From a virus: a DNA stretch of 64,000 nt. Below are positions 9,747-64,000 of this stretch, piece after piece. The DNA lies in IMG/VR virus record IMGVR_UViG_3300021138_000007, positions 32,001 through 96,000 of that record; one strand, 5' to 3'. Both the position numbers and the translations under genes were made by a program. Under the pieces are notes generated by a model. That model had not been told where the DNA came from, did not search any database, and saw nothing but the letters and a program-made list of their open reading frames with translations. Position 1 is the stretch's first letter. Each line of letters begins with the position of its first letter.

Positions 9747-12700
9747 TTAACTACACTTACTGTTTCCACAGTTTAAACAGACATGACAACCCTCTTGGAA
9801 AATAAGTTTTTCTCCACACTCAGGACATCTTTCACCTGAAGCTGTGCCATCAACAACATATTTCTTCAATTGTCGTGCCATGACTTTTCCAAAGCTATAA
9901 AGACCAGAATCTTTATCTTTACTTAATTGATCTACAATAACAGAGACAGGTACACCGTGTCTAAGCATTGTTGAGATGGTTCTAGTTGCCCAAGCATAAT
10001 CTCCATCGTTAAAGGCTACAGAAATATCTTTAACCTTGATTTCATCATCCTCGTCTCCTATAACAAGATCATAATAATTGGCTTTATTTTTATTAGCGGT
10101 TTTATCTGTCTTGCGTTTAATGATTGTACCAGTTTTATATTTTTTAGGTAATTCAACATGTTCACTTAAACCACCAAATACTTCATAAGGACGACCATTA
10201 TGAAGGCCGATAAGAATAGTCCATTTCTGACCATCTATATTGCTATGCATAATGTCGCAAGGAAGAACTTCTGGTCGCTTAGGCGCATGATTATCTACAA
10301 TATTGTCAGTATTATCACTTTCAGCAGAAACAAGAACACCTGTTCTACTACCATCTACATAAACAGTTACACCCTTTAAGCCATGTTTCCAAGAATGATA
10401 ATATAATTCAGCAACTGTTTCAGGAGTTGTTCCCATAGGCAAATTGATAGTGGAACTAATTCCATGATCAATGTACTTTTGAATTACACCTTGAATTTCA
10501 ACACGCCGCAAACCATTGATATCTCCAGCTTGAACGAAATAATCTGGAAGAATTGCGGACAATTCCGAAGACCATTCGCTATTAGGCTTAGTATTTTGAA
10601 TTACTTGCCATTTTTCATTAGCTTCAGTATTCAATTCAAAATATTCTTTAAGGGTAGGATGGAACACCATATAATGTTCCCATTTATCGCCATTCTGATC
10701 CACAAAATCAATTCTTGCATCTGGATCAGATGGATTAATTTTCTTGCGTCTCATGTAAAAATACATAAATACTGGTTCAAGTCCAGAACTAGTTTGTGAT
10801 TCAATAGAAACACTTCCCGTGGGAGCCATTGTAAGAATTGCGATATTTCGTCTTCCGTATTTTGCCATTTTTTCTTGAAGCCAACTTGGAAGTCTCTTAA
10901 TAAATTCACAATCTTTCTCGGTTTCCCAATCAAACGCTGGAAATGCCCCGCGTTCTTTAGCTAATTCAACTGATTCATCGTATGCAGTATTTCTAAATAC
11001 CTCAAATACTTGATCTACAAAAGCAATTGCTTCATCACTATCATAACGAATTTTTAGACAAGTCAAGGCATCTGCCAAGGCGTGATCTCCTAAACCTATT
11101 CGTCTACCCAATTCAGCGGCCTCTCTAAGTTTAGTGAAAACACGCTTTTCATCTTCGTCGTTAACATTATCAATAATATTAGTTAAATATTCAATTTCTA
11201 ATTCAACAATATTATCCATAACTCGGACGCCTTCTCTAACTTTTTCTCGATATAAATTAAAGTCAAAATAAGCATCATCTTGAAAAGGATTTTTGACATA
11301 ATTCTTTAAATTTAATGTTGTTAAACGACAAGAATCATATGCACTCAAGCCGATTTCTGAGCAGTTATGAACATAAAATCCGTTACAGTCAAAAGCTGAA
11401 ATTTCTGGGATAGTACAATCAAAAACATCTTCAAAGCCTCGACTAACAATTTCTTCAACTTCTACCAAGAAAGACTCTTTATTTGGAGTTCTTTTATATT
11501 CTGAAATTATATTTTCAAGCTTTGATTGTTTGTATTCATCAGTAAAGCCAATTTTATCATTGTATCTTATAATATTATCATTTGCAATGCAAAGTGAATG
11601 AATTGTATGACACCAATAAGATGAAGTTCCACCATTCCCATCAGGCAATGAATAATATCCCTCTAATCTACGGTTTTTATAAATTGTTGAAATAATACCC
11701 AATCGCGCAAGCATTCTTTGAACAATTTCTAATCCTTCTAAATTGGTAGAAGCCAATCTAATGCTAACACCTTTTTCTTGTGTGCCTTCAACGCTACCAT
11801 CAGCATCCATCCATCCTCGAATAAATCCTCTAGTAAAATCAGAAGAAGATTTTTCTACTAATTCATTAAACGTTTTAGATTGGTTCATTACGCCATATTT
11901 TTCAGCAAATTTACCAAGGTTTTTAGAGCTAACACGACTGAAAACATCATTTGTATGCCCAGCCATATCTGATCTTCCGCCAACAGTTTTATGTAATAAA
12001 GAAACTGCTTTAGCTAATAAATCTTTCTGATTAGTACCCCAGTAATCGAGATTTGCTGTGCCATCTTTTTCAATGTTGCCATCGACAATAAGATTGCCTA
12101 GTAGCCAACCTTCTTCAAAAGTTCCTTCGCCATCCCACTCAAAATTTAAGTGTTGATGAAGAACAATTTTATCTCCAGGAATTAGTTCTCCAACTTCTCT
12201 CCAAACTAATTCGGGTGCTTTTCTACCTTGCTTTCTTGAAACTAAAACAGGGTGATTGGAAGTAGCTGGAAGCATAAATCCTTCTTTTGTTCGAACTTCA
12301 AAAACTTCTTTATATCCTGTCGCAAAAAATCCATCTTCTGTTGAACTATATGATGTTCCGTTGACAATAGCATTAAATTGTTTGTTAATTAAATCATTTA
12401 CTAAACGAGGACCATCTTGTGTAGTAGTCCATGCATCTTTAGGAACACAAGGATTCACGCAAATAGTTTTAAACTGCGGATAGCAATGGGCTGGAAGATT
12501 AGAAGTGTAGTTATCCCAGAAAATAATGCCTGGTTCGGCTGTAGCACAAGCAGAGCTATTAATCAACATCCAAAGCTCATTAGCATTGAATTTCTTAAGT
12601 ACTCTTCGTTCAGATGAATCATTTGAATACCACATTTGATAAGCAACAGTTCCTGATTGTTCTGCTGTAACTTCAACCCATTTGCCACCTTTGTTTAAAA

Positions 12701-13550
12701 CATCTTGAACATCGCATTCAACCAATTCTAATTCTTCACAGGTTTCACAAGGCCATTTTGTTATCCATTCTGTTTTAGCTTCTACGGCTTGCATAAATTC
12801 ATCTGTAAGCATAATAGAAACATTAGCACCAGTTACTTTAGAGCGATCATGCTTCATGGTAACAAATCGATCAATATCAGGATGAAGAACATTTAATGTT
12901 TCCATCAAAGCGCCGCGTCGTCCATTTTGACCGATCATACGGCACACATTAGAATAATAATCTGCAAAACTCCAAGCTCCAGTTGAAGTTCCAGCAGAAT
13001 TGCTTACAACAGAATTTTCAGGTCGAAGAGTAGATAAATCTAAACCAACTCCAGCTCTGCGCTTAAATAAATTGGCTAAATCCTTACCAGTATCCATAAT
13101 GCCAGATACCATATCTTTAGGACTTTGAACAACTACACAGTTAGACAGAGAAACTCTAACAAATGGGTTGCCAGTACCATACATAGGACTGCCCTGAGGT
13201 ACAATATATTTAAAATGATCAAATGAATCATAATATTTATTGTATCTAGATTCATAAACAGACAATTGCTGCTCGTTTAAATCTGTAAATTTTAATTCTT
13301 TACCATAGAAGAAATGAACATCTTTCATGGCAATTTCAGAAGCCAAACGCTTATGCATATCAGCAGGGGTTAATTCACAGAAATTATTTTCTGATGCTTT
13401 TGGGTTGCGTAAAGCGTATTTGGTGATAAATGTCGATGTGGCAAGTTCATCGCCGCCAAAATATTTTAAAGTTTCTTGATATACCTCATTTTTGGAGTAT
13501 TTAGCATGTTGTGCTAATACTGTTGGGGTTAATACGTCTGATTGATTCAC
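9747..13550 (-). CDS. nrdJ: Class II (B12-dependent) ribonucleotide reductase with intein
   Basis: SLSNC, GRRGALM, EPG, NP|CSEI, APTG, GVTVYVDGSR, C-terminal Zn ribbon. Confidence 0.93.
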   Translation of the reverse strand: MNQSDVLTPTVLAQHAKYSKNEVYQETLKYFGGDELATSTFITKYALRNPKASENNFCELTPADMHKRLASEIAMKDVHFFYGKELKFTDLNEQQLSVYESRYNKYYDSFDHFKYIVPQGSPMYGTGNPFVRVSLSNCVVVQSPKDMVSGIMDTGKDLANLFKRRAGVGLDLSTLRPENSVVSNSAGTSTGAWSFADYYSNVCRMIGQNGRRGALMETLNVLHPDIDRFVTMKHDRSKVTGANVSIMLTDEFMQAVEAKTEWITKWPCETCEELELVECDVQDVLNKGGKWVEVTAEQSGTVAYQMWYSNDSSERRVLKKFNANELWMLINSSACATAEPGIIFWDNYTSNLPAHCYPQFKTICVNPCVPKDAWTTTQDGPRLVNDLINKQFNAIVNGTSYSSTEDGFFATGYKEVFEVRTKEGFMLPATSNHPVLVSRKQGRKAPELVWREVGELIPGDKIVLHQHLNFEWDGEGTFEEGWLLGNLIVDGNIEKDGTANLDYWGTNQKDLLAKAVSLLHKTVGGRSDMAGHTNDVFSRVSSKNLGKFAEKYGVMNQSKTFNELVEKSSSDFTRGFIRGWMDADGSVEGTQEKGVSIRLASTNLEGLEIVQRMLARLGIISTIYKNRRLEGYYSLPDGNGGTSSYWCHTIHSLCIANDNIIRYNDKIGFTDEYKQSKLENIISEYKRTPNKESFLVEVEEIVSRGFEDVFDCTIPEISAFDCNGFYVHNCSEIGLSAYDSCRLTTLNLKNYVKNPFQDDAYFDFNLYREKVREGVRVMDNIVELEIEYLTNIIDNVNDEDEKRVFTKLREAAELGRRIGLGDHALADALTCLKIRYDSDEAIAFVDQVFEVFRNTAYDESVELAKERGAFPAFDWETEKDCEFIKRLPSWLQEKMAKYGRRNIAILTMAPTGSVSIESQTSSGLEPVFMYFYMRRKKINPSDPDARIDFVDQNGDKWEHYMVFHPTLKEYFELNTEANEKWQVIQNTKPNSEWSSELSAILPDYFVQAGDINGLRRVEIQGVIQKYIDHGISSTINLPMGTTPETVAELYYHSWKHGLKGVTVYVDGSRTGVLVSAESDNTDNIVDNHAPKRPEVLPCDIMHSNIDGQKWTILIGLHNGRPYEVFGGLSEHVELPKKYKTGTIIKRKTDKTANKNKANYYDLVIGDEDDEIKVKDISVAFNDGDYAWATRTISTMLRHGVPVSVIVDQLSKDKDSGLYSFGKVMARQLKKYVVDGTASGERCPECGEKLIFQEGCHVCLNCGNSKCS
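11364..12449 (-). mobile_element. 362-aa intein with LAGLIDADG homing endonuclease at the RNR active-site NPC
   Basis: Starts CVPKDAW, block B ATSNHPV, LLGNLIVDG and FIRGWMDADG, ends GFYVHN before the catalytic CSEI. Confidence 0.95.
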
Positions 13551-54058: not shown

Positions 54059-55077
54059 GATATTTTTTCAATCTCCAATTGAGCGCCAACATAACAGTCT
54101 AAATCCCTGCGGATATTATTAATACGAGACATAGTATGATTACATATTGCGTTAATGCTATCAATCGCGGCACAATTTTGAGCAATAAGAACTTTATTGT
54201 CATCGACAACATTCATCATTATATTAATCTCATTTATCATATTTGTAACAGTGCTAAGAGCATTTAGACGATCCGCCATCTTCTTTAATGGCTCAATAGC
54301 ATTATTAACTTCATTTTTCTGATTTTTAAATATAACCAACTGATCTTTAAGCTTTTGAGAACACAATTGAGCCATATCAATCCGATTTTGAGTTAATTCA
54401 CTAATTGCATCTTTATTGTTATCAAAAGTTAAGCGAACTTTCATATTTTTAACTAATTGATCAATCTTGGATATTTGATTGTCTGTTGATCGAATTGATT
54501 CATCAATTGATGAAATTAAATTATCAGCTTCTTGGATGGGGAATTTTAATAAATATTTAGATACAGTATCAATAACTTCAGGATCATATATATTTATTTC
54601 CTGAGTCGTATTAGGTATTTCGATATTTTGCTTTTTGATAATTAAAGATACAATTAAAGACATAATACCATGCACTCGATAATCATACGACAAATGACCA
54701 GGAGTATATCTACCTAAAGCAATATTGTCTAAAACAAGAATGGAAAATAAAGTTGTAAATATAGCACCTTCTCCAGCCAGACAATATGCCCACCAACCGA
54801 ATAATCCAAAGTAAAAATTAACTGCGGCAAAAATTGTAATAGCATTATAAGAAAATAGATCAAGACTATTAAATATACCAAAAATAGCTTTCCATATCTT
54901 TTGCGAATTGTCTAGTTTATTTTTCCATTTATTAATTTGTTTGATTCTACTATCATATGTATCAATTTCCTCATTTTTAAACTGGGACTCTTCTGACTTT
55001 GCTTTTTTATATAAAGCAATAATATCAGATTCAACAAGATAGTTGGTAAAATCAATTTGCTCTAATGCTAAACTCAT
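54055..55077 (-). CDS. Membrane protein with C-terminal coiled coil (paralog of 53087..54058)
   Basis: Same architecture and motifs; ATGA-coupled to its paralog. Confidence 0.65.
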   Translation of the reverse strand: MSLALEQIDFTNYLVESDIIALYKKAKSEESQFKNEEIDTYDSRIKQINKWKNKLDNSQKIWKAIFGIFNSLDLFSYNAITIFAAVNFYFGLFGWWAYCLAGEGAIFTTLFSILVLDNIALGRYTPGHLSYDYRVHGIMSLIVSLIIKKQNIEIPNTTQEINIYDPEVIDTVSKYLLKFPIQEADNLISSIDESIRSTDNQISKIDQLVKNMKVRLTFDNNKDAISELTQNRIDMAQLCSQKLKDQLVIFKNQKNEVNNAIEPLKKMADRLNALSTVTNMINEINIMMNVVDDNKVLIAQNCAAIDSINAICNHTMSRINNIRRDLDCYVGAQLEIEKIS

Positions 55078-55589
55078 TTTAATAATTCCCTGACATTGCT
55101 CAATTTATTTAATTCTTGCCCACTCAATGTCACATATCCATTATCGGATGTTTTGCTGCGCAATACATTAAAAAAACTAATGTTATCATCATATTTACCA
55201 CATCGCTTGAGATAACGCTTATAAATTGAATTTCCAAATTTATTTTTAGAATGAACCCTGGAAAGAATATCCGACGATGTGACAGCAGGAACACCAAATA
55301 ACTTTAAATATTTCCGCCAACCATTAATGCGATCTATTTCAAGATTTATAAGATGAGCAAATTCACGACGTAAAATATTATCGTTCTTTACAGATAATTC
55401 ACGAACGAGACTGTCAACAAATACCTTGCGCACACGATAAAAACTATCATGGGACAAATTATTGCCGTTCATCAACAAACCCTCAACCACTAAATTGTCT
55501 GACAAAATTTCGTTTTCTAACATAACACTTTCTACGATCTTTTTGAATAAAAAGTTTTTCCTGAAAATTGCACACGAATAAATAGGCAA
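55074..55589 (-). CDS. Hypothetical protein
   Basis: ORF track; start probably internal. Confidence 0.45.
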   Translation of the reverse strand: MPIYSCAIFRKNFLFKKIVESVMLENEILSDNLVVEGLLMNGNNLSHDSFYRVRKVFVDSLVRELSVKNDNILRREFAHLINLEIDRINGWRKYLKLFGVPAVTSSDILSRVHSKNKFGNSIYKRYLKRCGKYDDNISFFNVLRSKTSDNGYVTLSGQELNKLSNVRELLK

Positions 55590-57709: not shown

Positions 57710-58097
57710 AAACAAACATATTTAACTAATTATATATTACTCCAGGGAGTCAAACGAAATCCAAAAACAAAAAAATCTAATAGCCCCCCATACCAATATT
57801 ATATTCTGCTACCTCGGAGTCCCTAAGCATTAGGTACCATATCACAAAAATTTAACTCCCCCCCCCCATACCAATCCTATTTTTAAAAACATATTTCTAA
57901 AGAACATAAAAAAGTTTTCTAAAAAATCCTAGCGATTGGAAATGCCACTTCGATTTTTTGGCGGGGGCAGGAAACACCCTTCCTTATGGAACCAAAATAA
58001 TTGACTACCCCTGGGGGTAGTATAGGAATAGTAGCATAGTAGCAATAGTAGCCATGTGGCATATACTATTATGTGGCATTAACATCTTATGGCATAA

Positions 58098-58149: not shown

Positions 58150-58635
58150 CTAGCTGAATCGTACTACGTTCTCCACCTTGAAGATGTTGAACATTGCCTG
58201 ACCTACTTCTGCTTTTGCTTCCTTTTCGGCACTATAGTCAGTGTCCTTGGCGTCTTCCGCCAACAAGTAATCGCGGATGTCATCCTTTTGTACTTCTACT
58301 CCGCCAAGAGTCCAAGTACTCGGCAATGGTCGAACAGGCAGTACTGCCAAGTACCATTGAGTACCCTTCCTCCAGAACTCGACACCGTTTACTACTTGGA
58401 CTTCTTCCACCCAAGGTTGTCGTTCTGGCGCTTCGCGTGTGCCTTCTGCTACGGCTTCCCGTACCGCTTTGGCGTTGGCATAAACGGCCTTAACATGGAA
58501 TTGCATGGCACCGATTTTGCGGATTTCTGGACCGTCATAGGATTTCTTAACCTTAGCGGGTCTGTCAGTATGAACCGTAGTAATAGCGCCACCGCGAAGG
58601 CCACCGAGAATGTCGATAATTGCTTCCTTAGTCAT
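58150..58635 (-). CDS. Cassette gene, paralog family member 1
   Basis: 161 aa, AAGGAG SD; collinear with 58954..59439 and 63538..>64000. Confidence 0.85.
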   Translation of the reverse strand: MTKEAIIDILGGLRGGAITTVHTDRPAKVKKSYDGPEIRKIGAMQFHVKAVYANAKAVREAVAEGTREAPERQPWVEEVQVVNGVEFWRKGTQWYLAVLPVRPLPSTWTLGGVEVQKDDIRDYLLAEDAKDTDYSAEKEAKAEVGQAMFNIFKVENVVRFS

Positions 58636-58953
58636 TTCTTAACTCCTTCGGTCCTGCCCCTCTTGGCTGAACCACACATAGTATACCTGATATGGTCAAG
58701 CCCTTCGCAAGCGTTGCTGAATTTATCGCAATATCACGTTTTATTTTACATCTTAAAAAACAAGGAGCGTATGCTATTTATGCAACATAATATTATAATA
58801 TAAAATAGTTAATATAAATAATTATGCAAAAAACGTCCCATTATGAATTTTAAGACGTAAAATAAATTGCTGATTTTTGAGCAATCAAATGCGTTGTCTC
58901 TATAGGGTATAATATATGTGTAGTTTACCCTAGAGGGTAGGGGTTAAAATAAC

Positions 58954-59439
58954 ATGACATTAGAAGCGATTATTGAAACACTGGATAAAAAGCGACGTGG
59001 TACAATTAGCACTGTATATTTGGACAGACCTGCACTTGTAAGAAGTAAATATCATGGTCCTGAAATTCGCAAAAAATCAGGAGTGCAGTTTTTGGCAAAA
59101 GTCGATTACTCAGACACAAATACAGTACGCCAAGCGGTTAAGAATGGCATTCGTCCTACGCCTCAAACACCGTCTTGGGTGGAAGAAGTTGTAATGCAAA
59201 AAGGTATTACATTCTGGCGCAAAAAAGATCAATGGTACCTAGTTATGGTGCCAATCAAACCACTCAAAGTAACATGGACTCTTGACGGTAATACAGTACC
59301 AAAAGAATCAATCCATGATTTTCTTCTTGCCGATGATGCAAAAGAAAGTAACTTCCAAGCAGAAAAATCAGATCGTGCAGAAAAAGGACATTCTGTTTAT
59401 ATTGTTGCTAAATTAGAAAACATCTCAAAAATGATTTAA
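58954..59439 (+). CDS. Cassette gene, paralog family member 2
   Basis: 161 aa; shares DRPA.V, GPEIRK, WVEEV, FWRK..QWYL, WTL.G and LLA.DAK with member 1. Confidence 0.85.
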   Translation: MTLEAIIETLDKKRRGTISTVYLDRPALVRSKYHGPEIRKKSGVQFLAKVDYSDTNTVRQAVKNGIRPTPQTPSWVEEVVMQKGITFWRKKDQWYLVMVPIKPLKVTWTLDGNTVPKESIHDFLLADDAKESNFQAEKSDRAEKGHSVYIVAKLENISKMI

Positions 59440-59456
59440 TCGAAACAGCGACTCCC

Positions 59457-59483
59457 AAAATCCAGTACTAAATACTGGATTTT
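59457..59483 (+). terminator. Cassette terminator abutting a minus-orientation site
   Basis: AAAATCCAGTA-N5-TACTGGATTTT. Confidence 0.7.
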
Positions 59484-59606
59484 ATTTTTGTCTTAAAATT
59501 CATGGAAGGACGATTTTTGTTACTCTCTAACAATAAGATTTATTGCTAAATTCATAGCAATAAATATCGTTCCCTCTAACGTGTGATTGGGTATAATAAA
59601 TACATT

Positions 59607-59849
59607 GTGCTGAGGACGCAGGGAAGTTATAAGTTTGCTGACACAAAAGAAACAGCAGAGTTTTGGGGATTCCTGCCTTTCTCTTACTGTTGTCAGGCTA
59701 TTAGAGACAATGTTATAATTCACGAAGCACGATATGAAATTTTTTGTCGTTCTCTAAATGATTTTGTAGCTATTGTTAAGATATGGAATGCTTTAGGAGA
59801 AATCAAGACAAAATACAGTACGATTCAATGGAGATATACGATTTGTTAG
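59607..59849 (+). CDS. Small leaderless hypothetical gene
   Basis: GGTATAAT-aaatac then ATT/GTG, the same geometry as the genes at 61114 and 63176. Confidence 0.45.
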   Translation: MLRTQGSYKFADTKETAEFWGFLPFSYCCQAIRDNVIIHEARYEIFCRSLNDFVAIVKIWNALGEIKTKYSTIQWRYTIC

Positions 59850-59948
59850 AGTGTTACTCTAACTCACTTCTTGCGATGGCATAGTATCGCAAGAAGTGAG
59901 TTAACTCCAACCCCTCAAACAAGCCCGTTGAAAAACGGGCCTTTATTG
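59838..59948 (+). repeat. Three-hairpin element, copy A
   Basis: Homologous to 61260-61363; GGCATAGT loop on an 18-bp stem; GCCCGTT/AACGGGC hairpin. Confidence 0.85.
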
Positions 59949-60046
59949 AAATAAGAGTCTTATCGTAATTTTTAAGACTCTAAAGAAAATTCGAAAAATT
60001 ATTCGAAAAATGCTCGATTTTTGTTTAGACCGTGGTATACTTATTA

Positions 60047-60209
60047 AGTCAACGATAAAGGTTGACATCGTTCAAAAGTCCATCTTAGGATGGCATTCGT
60101 CAACACAACATACGGGAAGCGCGTCCCGTAACGTGATCAACAGCTAGGTGCGAAAAAGGGCCTCACCTTGAGTCTTCTGTCAAAAGCAGAAGGAGGCCCT
60201 TTTTCTTTT
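60047..60209 (+). ncRNA. Candidate structured small RNA
   Basis: TGGTATACT extended -10 upstream, four hairpins, GC stem with U-tract, no credible ORF. Confidence 0.5.
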
Positions 60210-60304
60210 GCATTTTTATATAAATAAACGTCCCATCATGAATTTTAAGACGTAAAATAAATTGCTGATTTTTCCGCTTGCTATAAAAATAGCAATAAAA
60301 ACAC

Positions 60305-60332
60305 TTGACTTTTTAGTGTTTAGTAGTATACT
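60305..60332 (+). promoter_or_regulatory. Sigma70-type (putative early) promoter
   Basis: TTGACT-N16-TATACT; near-identical copy at 62418-62445. Confidence 0.75.
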
Positions 60333-60363
60333 AGGCTATCGCTGAGGCGAGGGAGTAAAACAG

Positions 60364-60939
60364 ATGTTTATGAAACGCGACAAGTCCGACGATTTACAGA
60401 ATGCCGCTTGTAATATCTTTGGATACAATGGTACTAAATTGAAAGCTGAGTTGGCTAAGGACAATATCGTTCAGTTGACTGACATGTATTGGCATGGTGG
60501 TACTAAAAGTTTCTATGCCATTATTGAATTGGCAACGATGAATTCAGTACCTTTGCCAAGTTTTCATCCTATGTTTGACGGTCAAGTACTTCCTGATAAG
60601 GTGGAACTTAAACCAGGATACGTACTGGTTCGCCATATTAAATTCTGCGGAAGTGATTTAGGACTTGAGTTTATCGTTCATGCTGACGACTGGAAGAATT
60701 ACGAACTTCCAGTACCCACCGAACTGAATAGGGATCAAAAGGTAGTACTTCTTTGTACTAAGTGCTATATTTCAAGTTATAGGCGCGAAGAAGCCAAAAG
60801 GTACGGTATTAAGGATTTTGACGCGATTAAGTCAGAGTTAATCGCTAAAGGACTTTTGTCCAAAATCGGAGCACTCACCGTAGAAGGTAAAAATGTTGCC
60901 AGTACTTTAGGCGACATCTATTCCTACTCTAAAAGATAA
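60364..60939 (+). CDS. Cassette gene, hypothetical (YWxGG motif, possible C-terminal winged helix)
   Basis: GGGAG SD, own promoter, terminator at about 60949-60979. Confidence 0.8.
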   Translation: MFMKRDKSDDLQNAACNIFGYNGTKLKAELAKDNIVQLTDMYWHGGTKSFYAIIELATMNSVPLPSFHPMFDGQVLPDKVELKPGYVLVRHIKFCGSDLGLEFIVHADDWKNYELPVPTELNRDQKVVLLCTKCYISSYRREEAKRYGIKDFDAIKSELIAKGLLSKIGALTVEGKNVASTLGDIYSYSKR

Positions 60940-61113
60940 GTACTAAAATAAAAGGGAAGGATATTCATCTTCCCTTTTATTTTACGTCTTAAAATCTATG
61001 ACGGGACGATTATTGTAATAAAATTAAAAAAGTATTTTCACTATGGGATTTATTGTTATTATAAAAACAACTTTTATTATACTCTTAAACGTGTTTGAGG
61101 GTATAATAAATAC

Positions 61114-61257
61114 ATGACGAATGAGGAGTTAGTAACAGAACTTCTGAAACTTAATCCTAAAGCAAAAATCAAGATTTTATCTTTGGATAGCATTGATAAT
61201 CATGATTTGGTTAAGATTTATGGAGAACAAGATGTTATTATATTCGATCATCAATAA
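61114..61257 (+). CDS. Small leaderless gene, 47 aa (MTNEELVTELLKLNPKAKI...)
   Basis: GGTATAAT-aaatac-ATG; manual translation. Confidence 0.65.
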   Translation: MTNEELVTELLKLNPKAKIKILSLDSIDNHDLVKIYGEQDVIIFDHQ

Positions 61258-61259
61258 AA

Positions 61260-61363
61260 ACGATTTGTTAGAGTAACACTCTAACGCACATCTTGTGATT
61301 GGCATAGTAGTCACAAGTTAACTCCAACCCTCAAACAAGCCCGTTGAAAACGGGCCTTTATTG
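61260..61363 (+). repeat. Three-hairpin element, copy B
   Basis: Homologous to 59838-59948 with changed but still paired stem. Confidence 0.85.
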
Positions 61364-61525
61364 CATTTAGAGTCCCGTCATGAATTTTAAGACGTAAAAT
61401 AAATTGCTGATTTTTGAACAAGTTATTGATACTTGAAAATTGCTCGATTTCCAACAAGAAAATACGTTTACCCTATATGGTAAACTATATGCGTCTGTGC
61501 CATGAGGGGCCAACAGGGAGTTAAA

Positions 61526-62278
61526 ATGCAAGTTTTAGATATTAACCTTTCGTCAACGATTAACCAGTTTGTAGAATTTGGTGAGGTTGCTATGGAGTCC
61601 GTAGAAACCGCCGTAAAGCGGTTTGCTGGGTTGAATCTGTACTTGAAGGTATCCAACTACTCTGAAGGCGGATACGACGACGAAACAGGCAGGGAGTGGC
61701 CTTCAGGGTGGAACTCTGAAACAGCTCCGTATGACGTTAAAAACGTAGTATGGCACTGTCTTGGATTGTCCCATATGGACACTGATGCTTTTCGAGAGGA
61801 GTTCGAGTCGTGGGCTACCGCGACTGAACAGGAGTTTCTTGCGTCTGCCATCCGATGTATAGCCTATGACGATGAGAACATTCAGGCTGAATTCTTGACC
61901 CCTGAACAGTTTCAGGAACAGGAACAAGCTGAATTCGTTCGACGTATGAACCTTGAGCGAGATCGGTACGAACCTATCGCTTGTCGGTTCGCTCACAAGC
62001 ATGGAGTTAAATTTGGTACTCCCGAATTTATGTCCAAGTTGGCAGATGCTTTAAGTACTGCCGAAGAAGATGAGCAGGAACGAAGGCATGGCATGAGGGA
62101 GGACGGTTTGTGCTGTACTGGGTACGGTTTTGGTAGCGCGGCTGTAAACGAATGGTACGATTCGTACAATACTCGTTTACCTGAACTCGTCGAACTTGAG
62201 GGACTTATGGAATGGATTCAAGAATTCCAACCGCTTTTGTATTCTGTTTGGGAGTCCAGTAGACTACAAACAGCATAG
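61526..62278 (+). CDS. Cassette gene, highly acidic hypothetical protein
   Basis: GGGAG SD before ATG 61526; terminator at 62291-62322. Confidence 0.8.
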   Translation: MQVLDINLSSTINQFVEFGEVAMESVETAVKRFAGLNLYLKVSNYSEGGYDDETGREWPSGWNSETAPYDVKNVVWHCLGLSHMDTDAFREEFESWATATEQEFLASAIRCIAYDDENIQAEFLTPEQFQEQEQAEFVRRMNLERDRYEPIACRFAHKHGVKFGTPEFMSKLADALSTAEEDEQERRHGMREDGLCCTGYGFGSAAVNEWYDSYNTRLPELVELEGLMEWIQEFQPLLYSVWESSRLQTA

Positions 62279-62417
62279 TCTAAAGTACTCAATAACTAGG
62301 AATGTAAAAATTCCTAGTTATTGTTAATATATTAAAAAAAGTGTCCCGTTATGAATTTTAAGACGTAAAATAAATTGCTGATTTTTGAGTAAGCTGTAAA
62401 GATAGCAATAAAAGCAC

Positions 62418-62445
62418 TTGACTTTTTAGAGAATAGTAGTATACT
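62418..62445 (+). promoter_or_regulatory. Sigma70-type (putative early) promoter
   Basis: TTGACT-N16-TATACT. Confidence 0.75.
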
Positions 62446-62475
62446 AAGTTATCGCTTTGAGGGCGATATGGAGTA

Positions 62476-62922
62476 ATGAAAATGTTTGATCGTTTAACAG
62501 AAACCGCGCTGGTGCCTTTCACTAATGATGAACTGAATCTTCTTTTGGATCGTCACTATGGAGTCGAAAGGAGTGACGACGACGGCAAGTCGATTATCAC
62601 TGATATTTGGGATGCTGTAGCCCCTTATACAGACGTATATGCAACACTGACACACTATCACATGACGGATTGGGAACCCGCTGAGGGTGGCTGTGGCATT
62701 TGGAAGGCAGTGGAGCAAAAAGCATGGCGCGTCGATGGCACTGTTACAGAAGACGATCTGGATGCCATTAGGGACGCAATCTTGTCTTCTCTAACAGACG
62801 TGCGAACCAACGAGCAAGGTGAAATCGTAGGGTACTCAAACGACGGCGAAAAAGGTTCGTTTTCTGTTTACTTCACCGTCGGACGACCTTACGCACATAT
62901 CCCCTATTTCGGATACTGCTAA
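62476..62922 (+). CDS. Cassette gene, acidic hypothetical protein
   Basis: GGAG SD (start may be the second Met); terminator at 62926-62959. Confidence 0.8.
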   Translation: MKMFDRLTETALVPFTNDELNLLLDRHYGVERSDDDGKSIITDIWDAVAPYTDVYATLTHYHMTDWEPAEGGCGIWKAVEQKAWRVDGTVTEDDLDAIRDAILSSLTDVRTNEQGEIVGYSNDGEKGSFSVYFTVGRPYAHIPYFGYC

Positions 62923-63175
62923 GAGTTAAAAGCAAGGGAAGTAATTTCCTTGCTTTTAATTTGTGTCTTAAAATTCATGACGGGACGCTTTTTGTAAAAA
63001 AGTTAAAATTAATTATTTTTAACCATTATAATTTATTGTTATTTAAAATAGTAATAAAACGTTGTTTTATATCAATAATGGTATGATTTGTCGATTCATT
63101 CTCTAAATGATTATTTTGCCTATATTTTAGCAATAAATCGTGGATATTATTTAGAGAGTGTGATATAATAAAGAC

Positions 63176-63316
63176 ATGAAAAAGTTTATTCTTCATTGGA
63201 AAGACGGAAAGAAAGAAGAAGTGACTGGCAATGATATTGCTAGTGCCTTTAGCAATGCGGGATATTCTCAAGGCGCGATTAGAGCCTTGGATTATTACGA
63301 AGAAGTCAAGAACTAA
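63176..63316 (+). CDS. Small leaderless gene, 46 aa (MKKFILHWKDGKKEEVTG...)
   Basis: TGATATAAT-aaagac-ATG; terminator hairpin at about 63324-63357. Confidence 0.7.
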   Translation: MKKFILHWKDGKKEEVTGNDIASAFSNAGYSQGAIRALDYYEEVKN

Positions 63317-63537
63317 TATGAACTAAAAATAACATTTAGAGATAGATGTTATTTTTATTATAATGCATTTAGAGTCCCGTCATGAATTTTAAGATGTAAA
63401 ATAAAATTAAAGATATTGCTTAAATTTTAGCTCGATTTATTACTACTCGAAAATTGCTCGAAAAATGTTCGAAAACACTCGATTTTTGCCAGCATATACG
63501 GTATTATATAAGAACATAAGGATACGGAGAACAGTAA

Positions 63538-64000
63538 ATGACTACAACTGAAATCGCTACCGCACTTGAATCCAAACCGAAGGGTTCCATTTTTACTCTG
63601 GTTGTTACACGCGCAGGCAAGGTGCGAAAGTCTTATGACGGTAAACCTATCACCAAGACTTCGATCATGCAGGGAATGACAAACGTCAACTATGCTGATC
63701 GTAAACCAGTACGTGAAGCCGTCGCCAACGAGGAAAGGGATGCTCCCGAACTTCCATCCCATATTGAGGATACCTTTATGGTATCTAAGACACGATTCTG
63801 GAAGGGTAAGAACGGTAAGGAGTATTTTCCTGTCTGTCTGACTGGTAATAAGCCGCAAGCACAATGGTACTTGGATGGTGAACCAGTGGACTTGGATACC
63901 ATTAAGGATCATCTTTTGGCTTCCGAGTACGCCGAACGAAAGGACAAGGAAACCACTGAGGACAAAGGTCAGGCCCTTTTCATCGGTGTCGAAGTTTCCA
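63538..64000 (+). CDS. Cassette gene, paralog family member 3 (runs off the window)
   Basis: Manual translation MTTTEIATALESKPKGSIFTL...KVRKSYDG...VREAVA...FWKG...WYLDG...DHLLA; GGAG SD. Confidence 0.85.
   Translation, partial: MTTTEIATALESKPKGSIFTLVVTRAGKVRKSYDGKPITKTSIMQGMTNVNYADRKPVREAVANEERDAPELPSHIEDTFMVSKTRFWKGKNGKEYFPVCLTGNKPQAQWYLDGEPVDLDTIKDHLLASEYAERKDKETTEDKGQALFIGVEVS

Follow-up and report, generated by a model that had tools for sequence, protein, structure and literature searches.

The stretch of DNA analyzed here, referred to as the window, comprises 64,000 nt (bases 32001-96000) of the 112,111-bp IMG/VR record IMGVR_UViG_3300021138_000007 (hereafter G000), which derives from a giant uncultured freshwater phage whose early genes each carry their own promoter and terminator. 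Toward its right end, the window enters an array of 18 kb with ~35 small genes, in which an asymmetric box of ~43 bp was found at the junctions between transcription units. Considering the anatomy of these junctions, the conservation pattern of the box and the turnover of the genes that it separates, we would give about an even chance to the explanation that the box is bound by a protein within junctions resembling the promoter-early stem-loops (PeSLs) of T4-type phages, with homologous recombination at these junctions as a by-product. An earlier sequence-only reading of the window had instead taken the array for a candidate gene-shuffling system built on recombinase-like sites. CheckV places the completeness of G000 at 31%, and its gene set includes a DnaE-type DNA polymerase, ribonucleotide reductase and RecJ-like, DnaB-like, UvsX-like and SbcC-like proteins. 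Near and distant INPHARED searches returned no nucleotide-level relatives of G000 among deposited phage records, and the relatives recognized by polymerase similarity are uncultured jumbo phages of 300-379 kb. The GC content climbs from 29-33% to 39% near window position 58,000, where the short, individually expressed genes start.

Scanning with a 32-nt pattern of the box yielded seven matches in the window and 0 in 100 shuffles, and a search of the whole record tolerating up to 8 mismatches in 32 retrieved 25 copies, all located between 90.8 and 108.8 kb, the other 94 kb containing none. Two further diverged copies were spotted by eye (window 59957, + strand, and G000 104388, + strand), so that the array holds 28 copies in all, 27 of them full and one truncated (58739-58758). 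The roughly ten copies that the sequence-only reading had counted at 58739-63405 were recovered and exceed chance expectation, their positions being 58739-58758 (-, truncated), 58835 (+), 59480 (-), 59957 (+), 60230 (+), 60976 (-), 61372 (+), 62343 (+), 62955 (-) and 63374 (+). The next box lies at 64060 (-), and another 17 copies come after it, the last at 76831 if the window numbering is continued. Mapping of the copies, which the same reading had proposed, restricts them to a single array of the record.

When all copies are aligned with their flanks, the box reads TTRCAAtAAnC-GTCCCnYCATnnATTTTAAGAYRyAAAATAAA, in which the invariant blocks GTC, CAT, TTTTAAGA, AAA and AAA alternate with freely varying positions. 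The dyad previously described as ACGTC-N16-GACGT is preserved in its inner GTC...GAC part, but the outer two pairs mostly fail and no covariation was observed; among 30 copies, the C-G pair is present in all 30, the T-A pair in 29 and the G-C pair in 20. Overall, the dyad symmetry of the box is modest: the best axis falls at position 21, within the AT-rich ATTTTAAGACGTAAAAT and not between the arms named earlier, is driven by the AT tract, and has a score that exceeds the mean of column shuffles yet stays inside the shuffle range. No base pair was predicted by RNAalifold on the 30 copies, the comparison of the array with Rfam gave nothing relevant, and ARAGORN called no tRNA in it. A reverse-strand mini-open reading frame (ORF) running through the box (ATG-xxx-GGA-CGx-TTx-TTG-TAA) was also considered and rejected, its frame and stop not being preserved across the copies when these were inspected by eye.

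The placement of the box follows the transcription units closely. Nine consecutive junctions between transcription units in the window carry exactly one box apiece, and, beyond the window, tandem, divergent and convergent junctions, the last of these without promoter, carry the box as well. In 13 copies, which we designate as terminator context (T-context), the A-rich tail of the box adjoins a GC-rich hairpin and provides, on the opposite strand, the terminator T-run of the converging gene; several of these box-tailed terminators were predicted by the terminator scan, one tail being TTTATTTTGT. In the 14 copies of the promoter context (P-context), the tail faces a predicted sigma-70-type promoter firing away from the box, with a sequence match either to TTGACT-16/17-TATACT or to the extended -10 TGnTATA(A/C)T. 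The flanking hairpins and promoters vary while the box stays constant, and sub-families of the box accompany particular terminator or promoter modules. The box-plus-promoter chassis at 60217-60343 and 62330-62456 is 84% identical over 127 nt and is followed by unrelated cargo in the two places.

The orientation of the boxes is random, with 14 runs among 27 oriented copies against 14.5 +/- 2.5 expected (z = -0.19), whereas strict alternation would give 27 runs. The three inverted pairs that the sequence-only reading had named do bracket units composed of promoter, Shine-Dalgarno (SD) sequence, gene and terminator, the tail of the minus copy serving as the terminator T-run, but such bracketing is no commoner than chance; a single box per junction, oriented at random, would often yield inverted pairs. 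One box per junction is the simpler rule. The units lying between two inward-pointing tails are SD-led, often GC-rich and foreign-looking, and those between two outward-pointing tails are AT-rich leaderless mini-genes, in which the -10 box precedes the ATG by 6 nt. The latter agree with the intervening module type described in the earlier reading, the -10/ATG pairs being located at 61102/61114 and 63164/63176.

Outside G000, the exact box was absent from other IMG/VR records, in which the search patterns gave only three single chance matches or none, and no copy was found in GTDB genomes, which rules out a host repeat of exactly this form. Two contigs of the Joint Genome Institute (JGI) metagenome Ga0214164 (loci L007-L009) do contain it, placed with respect to terminators and promoters as it is in G000. 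The Ga0214164 phage, also from freshwater, carries rIIA/rIIB, and in the stretches compared no proteins common to it and G000 were detectable, save one weak match. The DNA likeness between the two phages is nearly all confined to the junction modules, which are 83-97% identical over 40-90 nt. Within the box, the columns conserved at 90% or more in G000 agree at 98% in the Ga0214164 copies, compared with 56% at columns conserved below 70%. The conservation of the same columns in a second phage argues for base-specific selection rather than recent copying. Apart from the array, a stretch of 67 nt is 87% identical between L008 10856-10921 and G000 87549-87613; it is intergenic, upstream of the gene at window 55074-55589, and may be another regulatory element shared by the two phages.

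Five relatives of G000 were searched for recombinase genes, namely G001 (IMGVR_UViG_3300032116_000001, 378,848 bp, judged complete), G005 (IMGVR_UViG_3300042879_006196, 99% complete) and three others; of the two complete ones, G001 was inspected for a box of its own. The polymerase of G001 is 62% identical to that of G000. The G000-type box is absent from G001, which has its own box of 36 nt, TTTATRRCTTTCYNNGATTRTGNGNCACGATCATWA, in 21 copies on both strands, all at 34.6-59.0 kb of its 379 kb. This region is a syntenic small-gene array that likewise holds a homologue of a 161-amino acid (aa) protein family found in the array of G000. As in G000, the box is array-confined, present on both strands and placed between a terminator hairpin, with whose T-run it begins, and an early promoter. 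Most of its sequence differs, however, and a 7-3-7 dyad (GATTRTG-N3-CACGATC) is present in it but not in the G000 box. Furthermore, 13-14 of 20 copies end at a fixed distance of ~25 nt before a two-box leaderless promoter particular to this phage (AAAAATCCCC...AATCGGATATATAA-N3-ATG). The pattern of this promoter, AAAAATCCCC-N17-19-(A/G)ATCGGATATATAA with the start codon 3 nt on, is not sigma-70-like and occurs in 42 near-perfect copies, which are almost entirely restricted to the first 60 kb (2-60 kb). The C-ends of the two boxes are alike (ACGATYATT; CACGATCATTA in comparison with GGACGATTATTG), and the G000 and G001 boxes may for this reason share an origin. In both relatives that were examined, early genes are usually leaderless. 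In G005, ~71 tandem mini-genes rich in CAGGTG repeats were observed at 14.4-33 kb, spaced by ~160 nt and starting with ATGATTAATACAGATTGTGTGG (MINTDCV...), along with 57 copies of the promoter-like word TTTTCCAGGTTTAACACAATCTGATTATAAT at 12-68 kb, 4-5 nt before start codons.

The arrays of G000 and G001 have just three cargo genes in common, and these retain the same order, which speaks against the recombinase logic of the sequence-only reading. In G001, all three are flanked by inverted boxes with tails inward, as the SD-led units of G000 often are. The best-matching copy of the 161-aa family is inverted and displaced relative to G001; given that a more divergent paralogue is present in the syntenic place and orientation, this copy constitutes weak evidence for cassette inversion. 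At the divergence reflected by the polymerases, the flanks of the two arrays are too diverged to place breakpoints, and the likeness to the Ga0214164 phage in junction modules only would be compatible with gene exchange bounded by the junctions.

PHROG and Pfam matches are mostly absent for the cargo genes, the exceptions being an ArdC-like anti-restriction protein (ArdcN plus zincin metallopeptidase domain), a DUF7227/GP88 protein and a DUF6011 protein. The gene of the ArdC-like protein (G000 102322-103212, corresponding to L001 8322-9212, beyond the window) is box-flanked cargo whose best outside relatives are only ~50% identical, and its homologue in the G001 array, 44% identical, is flanked by the boxes of G001. 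The 161-aa family is the only cargo family with paralogues in the array (58150-58635, -, 50% GC; 58954-59439, +, 37% GC; 63538-64020, +, 47% GC) as well as a homologue in that of G001 (58471-58938). Paralogous cargo shares 31-47% amino-acid identity, while the flanking boxes are ~90% alike. Cargo GC content spans 26-50%, which, together with the GC contents of 37%, 47% and 50% among the paralogues, argues for acquisition from varied sources. The part of the earlier reading that sees an array of independent early modules, subject to strong gene flux and carrying anti-host functions, is in agreement with the ArdC-like gene, this GC range and the small number of cargo genes common to G000 and its closest complete relative, and the box does mark the module borders. 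Regarding the 161-aa family itself, ~200 clusters were found in a library of 1.8 billion proteins, and its structural model (pLDDT 97) gave no Foldseek match in the PDB; VIA retrieved just a weak similarity to a WYL/Sm-like barrel (Z 4.5, ~70 residues). The family was considered as a box binder and set aside, the Foldseek and VIA structure comparisons giving no evidence for box binding.

Published PeSLs are repeated terminator and early-promoter motifs in hyperplastic regions that mediate shuffling via homologous recombination, as described in the T4-type phages RB49/phi1, T4/PST and KVP40/nt-1 (Arbiol et al. 2010, PMC2839356; Comeau et al. 2014, PMC4122927). The junctions of the array are comparable in several respects: they combine a repeated terminator hairpin with a strong sigma-70-type early promoter that has an AT-rich upstream region (both predicted here), they cluster in a hyperplastic region whose genes are small, non-core and for the most part unknown, and they separate unrelated cargo in a phage that has its own homologous-recombination genes. 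This likeness is one of sequence layout, and motif-bounded gene gains, losses and replacements between close relatives, as well as mini-circles arising by recombination of neighboring motifs, are features of the published PeSLs. The differences are that the source phage belongs to another lineage, that of a jumbo phage with a DnaE-type polymerase, and that its junctions hold an extra, sequence-specific box of 43 bp. Being no promoter and no hairpin, this box is found in either orientation, also at convergent and divergent junctions, and has a tail that doubles as terminator U-tract. Judged by their layout, the array junctions thus appear to be a variant of the PeSL terminator-plus-promoter junctions, with the box as a new element.

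In the explanation that we favor, the array is a chain of self-contained promoter-gene-terminator units containing the early, accessory, anti-host genes of a jumbo phage, and the box would be the site of a DNA-binding protein particular to the phage lineage, through which the early units are controlled or insulated, possibly by array-wide shut-off, a roadblock, a boundary function or control of termination. The A/T-rich tail would have a second job, either as terminator U-tract or as A-tract upstream of a promoter, and the UvsX-like, RecJ-like and SbcC-like enzymes of the phage may exchange, delete or invert cassettes using junction homology. Recurring ~27 times beside unrelated genes, a junction of 40-90 bp makes for portable homology, and its use as a recombination substrate would account both for the same chassis carrying unrelated cargo and for the heavy cargo turnover. 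Lineage-specific protein recognition, rather than passive homology alone, is suggested by the column-specific conservation with the same columns conserved in the second phage, as well as by the replacement of the box at the same place in the sister phage G001 and its confinement to the early array. The anatomy of the array, the confinement and conservation of the box, the cargo turnover and the lack of known recombinase families are observations, whereas protein binding, a regulatory role and recombination at the junctions are inferred.

Several observations weigh against this explanation. No candidate for the box-binding protein emerged, HU/TF1-type binders being set aside as PF00216 had no match in the fragment. 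The -10 element follows the box at distances of 13 to 96 nt, without clear helical phasing, and the orientation of the box relative to the promoter is not fixed. These features set the box apart from operator and activator sites of the classical, fixed-geometry kind. The boxes at convergent junctions have no promoter to regulate, and since these promoterless junctions are occupied as well, the objection to a plain operator raised by the sequence-only reading, which had pointed to copies downstream of terminators, still holds. Moreover, likeness within a genome combined with divergence between genomes could stem from concerted evolution by gene conversion, and the published PeSLs, which come from a different phage group, are without the extra box.

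Sites that operate from variable positions offer a parallel for the binding of a protein to the box. The OB sites of KorB in IncP plasmids are 13-bp palindromes that serve as global operators acting at variable distance, and the sites of TTF-I and Reb1 are eukaryotic polar terminator or boundary sites flanking ribosomal DNA units. The box resembles these in the provision of one site per transcription unit, in the variable distance to the promoter and in the location both upstream of promoters and downstream of terminators; the analogy is confined to the way of working, with no relation in sequence or family.

The same conservation data bear on the possibility that the box lacks a binding protein of its own, is kept alike by homologous recombination and gene conversion, and persists by promoting cassette exchange, as is classic for PeSLs. 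The constancy of the box between partners that vary on both sides, in both orientations, would fit this alternative, as would the association of box sub-families with particular terminator or promoter modules, the confinement of DNA similarity with the second phage to junction modules, the homologous-recombination genes of the phage and the PeSL precedent itself. Conversion would nevertheless homogenize whole stretches, whereas the conservation seen here is column-specific, recurs in another phage and leaves the neighboring positions free, and the marked divergence of the paralogous cargo beside boxes that are ~90% alike is also at odds with it; we regard this alternative as possible, though clearly on the unlikely side. 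That RNA polymerase itself reads the box with no dedicated factor seems to us a rather doubtful proposal. It would assign the T14-17 and A25-32 tracts to an UP-like element on one strand and a terminator U-tract on the other, with the remaining box tuning termination or promoter escape. The tail does form the U-tract in 13 copies, and where the box abuts the -35 (G000 97933+, G000 106681- and L007 5249+), the A-tract lies at about -39 to -46 and the T-tract at about -54 to -57, placements that match the UP-element positions of the UP consensus. Most boxes in the P-context, however, are located 20-70 nt too far upstream for an UP element, the invariant GTC, CAT and G20 are left without a role, terminators and promoters elsewhere in the genome are without the box, and the relative G001 uses a quite different one. 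The self-contained, asymmetric and highly conserved character of the box, with TTRCAA at its outer end, is also reminiscent of phage-specific promoters, and relatives use lineage-specific early promoters, which would be compatible with a middle-class promoter for a phage-redirected host polymerase or a promoter for a phage polymerase. Yet no acceptable -10 was found at 16-19 nt from TTRCAA, on which ground a sigma-70 promoter inside the box was rejected; moreover, transcription from half of the copies would run directly into a terminator hairpin, in antisense to the neighboring gene, and the orientation is unrelated to gene direction, all of which makes a promoter function of the box highly improbable.

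In the proposal of the sequence-only reading, the boxes are targeted by a site-specific recombinase or transposase that is dedicated to them, is encoded off-fragment and acquires, inverts or reassorts the cassettes; the array would then correspond, in a phage, to integrons or pdif modules. In pdif modules, XerC/XerD sites flank resistance modules on Acinetobacter plasmids; these sites are 11-6-11 dyads in strictly alternating orientation that are cut by XerC/XerD. The array similarly consists of small modules punctuated by short conserved sites, some of the modules lying between inverted copies, but only 3 bp of dyad are found here. The two inverted arms of ~11-13 bp that define a tyrosine-recombinase core site are missing, just GTC/GAC, 16 nt apart, being general, and the 14 runs counted above depart from the 27 of pdif-type alternation. 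Integron cassettes are promoterless, point in one direction and are served by IntI, and in their attC sites it is the folded single-strand structure that is conserved, not the sequence. Single-gene cassettes, unrelated and horizontally acquired cargo and a recurring separator site are shared with integrons; on the other hand, the cassettes of the array are each equipped with a promoter and a terminator and lie in both orientations, no IntI-like gene was found, and no conserved attC-type fold is predicted for the 30 copies, whereas the box sequence is highly conserved.

With respect to the enzyme, PF00589 (Phage_integrase) had no match in G000 or in the five relatives, two of which are 99-100% complete, host-supplied Xer being outside this search, and PF00239 (resolvase/invertase) had none in the same six genomes. 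The rve and Y1_Tnp families were likewise without match in G000, G001 and G005, other transposase families not being searched. For these families, the absence of a recombinase gene that the earlier reading had recorded for the window extends to G000 as a whole and to the two relatives of 99-100% completeness, of which G001 possesses a boxed array itself. The location of the boxes at module borders, the inward-tailed inverted boxes that often flank SD-led, foreign-looking units, including the three genes shared with G001, the copy truncated inside the box, the inverted and displaced 161-aa copy and the fact that just 31% of the genome is in hand are in favor of such an enzyme. The lack of long inverted arms and of a conserved single-stranded DNA or RNA fold, the random orientations, the missing recombinase families, the absence of target-site duplications beside the inverted pairs when inspected by eye, the conserved order of the three shared cassettes and the divergent paralogue in its syntenic place and orientation all speak against it, and we regard this proposal as quite improbable. 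Nothing that was found shows a recombinase-driven gene-shuffling machine. A particular form of the idea holds the box to be the site of an unrecognized phage enzyme, neither tyrosine nor serine recombinase, that captures foreign genes as early-region cassettes, the ArdC-like gene and others with a GC content of 26-50% being its cargo; its gene might be one of the ORFans or lie in the two-thirds of the genome that the record does not cover. Although we see only a slim chance for it, such an enzyme would amount to phage-borne, integron-like capture of anti-defense genes, in which each lineage would have its own pair of box and enzyme.

Large phages house their anti-defense and host-takeover genes in early accessory regions, the regions with the fastest turnover. 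The array provides a countable example outside the T4 group, in which one lineage-specific box delimits each transcription unit, the same box being found in phages with unrelated cargo and a different box at the same place in a sister phage. If the favored explanation is right and the box binds a regulator, it would offer a handle on the array-wide control of the early anti-host genes of jumbo phages; if the box is a crossover point, it would give a testable form to the old "linker" model of modular phage evolution. Either way, the box can be used as a marker for finding cargo arrays and new anti-defense candidates in metagenomes. The features of the array within the window are compiled in the table below.

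Table. Boxes, genes and other units of the array within the window (positions in window numbering)
Feature	Position	Strand	Remarks
First array gene, 161-aa family paralogue	58150-58635	-	50% GC; base composition shifts at ~58000
Truncated box	58739-58758	-	Just the TTTTAAGATGTAAAATAAAA part left; divergent junction, left edge of array
Box, P-context	58825-58867	+	A-tail, then TTGCTGATTTTTGAGCAA, then -10 TATAAT at 58908
Cargo gene, 161 aa	58954-59439	+	Member of three-paralogue family
Box, T-context	59479-59521	-	Tail is T-run of terminator hairpin 59457-59483
Second-type unit, no clear ORF	59592-59940	+	GGTATAAT promoter start; three-hairpin 3' element; terminator 59923-59940
Diverged box GTCTTATCGTAATTTTTAAGACTCTAAAGAAA	59957-59988	+	The "variant" of the sequence-only reading
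Box, P-context	60220-60262	+	Upstream of TTGACT-16-TATACT promoter 60305-60332
Cargo gene, 191 aa	60364-60939	+	No family match
Box, T-context	60975-61017	-	Fused to hairpin ~60952-60977
Leaderless mini-gene unit	61102-61257	+	TATAAT 61102-61107, ATG 61114, ORF 47 aa
Box, P-context	61362-61404	+	Directly after terminator 61339-61355
Cargo gene, 258 aa	61502-62278	+	47% GC; no family match
Box, P-context	62333-62375	+	Box and promoter resemble unit 60217-60343
Cargo gene, 148 aa	62476-62922	+	
Box, T-context	62954-62996	-	Fused to hairpin ~62931-62954
Leaderless mini-gene unit	63164-63316	+	TATAAT 63164-63169, ATG 63176, ORF 46 aa
Box, P-context	63364-63406	+	Followed by TCGAAAA-type iterons and promoter near 63503
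Cargo gene, third 161-aa paralogue	63538-64000	+	Continues past window end to 64020

Besides the box, other short repeats were observed in the array. A second motif, (T/C)TCGAAAAA(T)TG, forms arrays with a spacing of ~11-12 nt (e.g., TTCGAAAAATTATTCGAAAAATGCTCGATTTTTG) at window 59985-60025, 61430-61450 and 63424-63480 and at G000 104880-104990 and 99930-99960; these arrays occupy part of the interval that separates certain boxes from the promoter after them, and they resemble iterons or operators for a further regulator. A palindrome, TTGCTAT-AAAA-ATAGCAA (also TTATTGCTAAATTCATAGCAATAA), is located just 5' of the -35 of several cassette promoters (window 59539-59564, 60278-60299 and ~62395-62410) and is a candidate operator separate from the box. 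Two of the leaderless-type units end in a duplicated 3' element of ~100-150 nt (window 59838-59943 and 61260-61359), composed of several hairpins followed by the terminator GCCCGTTGAAAACGGGC, with one hairpin loop flipped in one of the copies (GTTAGAGTGTTACTCTAAC versus GTTAGAGTAACACTCTAAC). Two small non-coding units were also noted at G000 99306-99417 and 105000-105110, each with its own promoter and a box-fused terminator (predicted); one corresponds to a long closed hairpin RNA and the other is tRNA-like, with GGTTCGATTCC, and was not called by ARAGORN. Far from the array, the large subunit of ribonucleotide reductase (window 9747-13550, - strand, 1267 aa) contains an endonuclease-like insert at residues 477-594 (PHROG 4645), which suggests an intein or a homing-endonuclease insertion.

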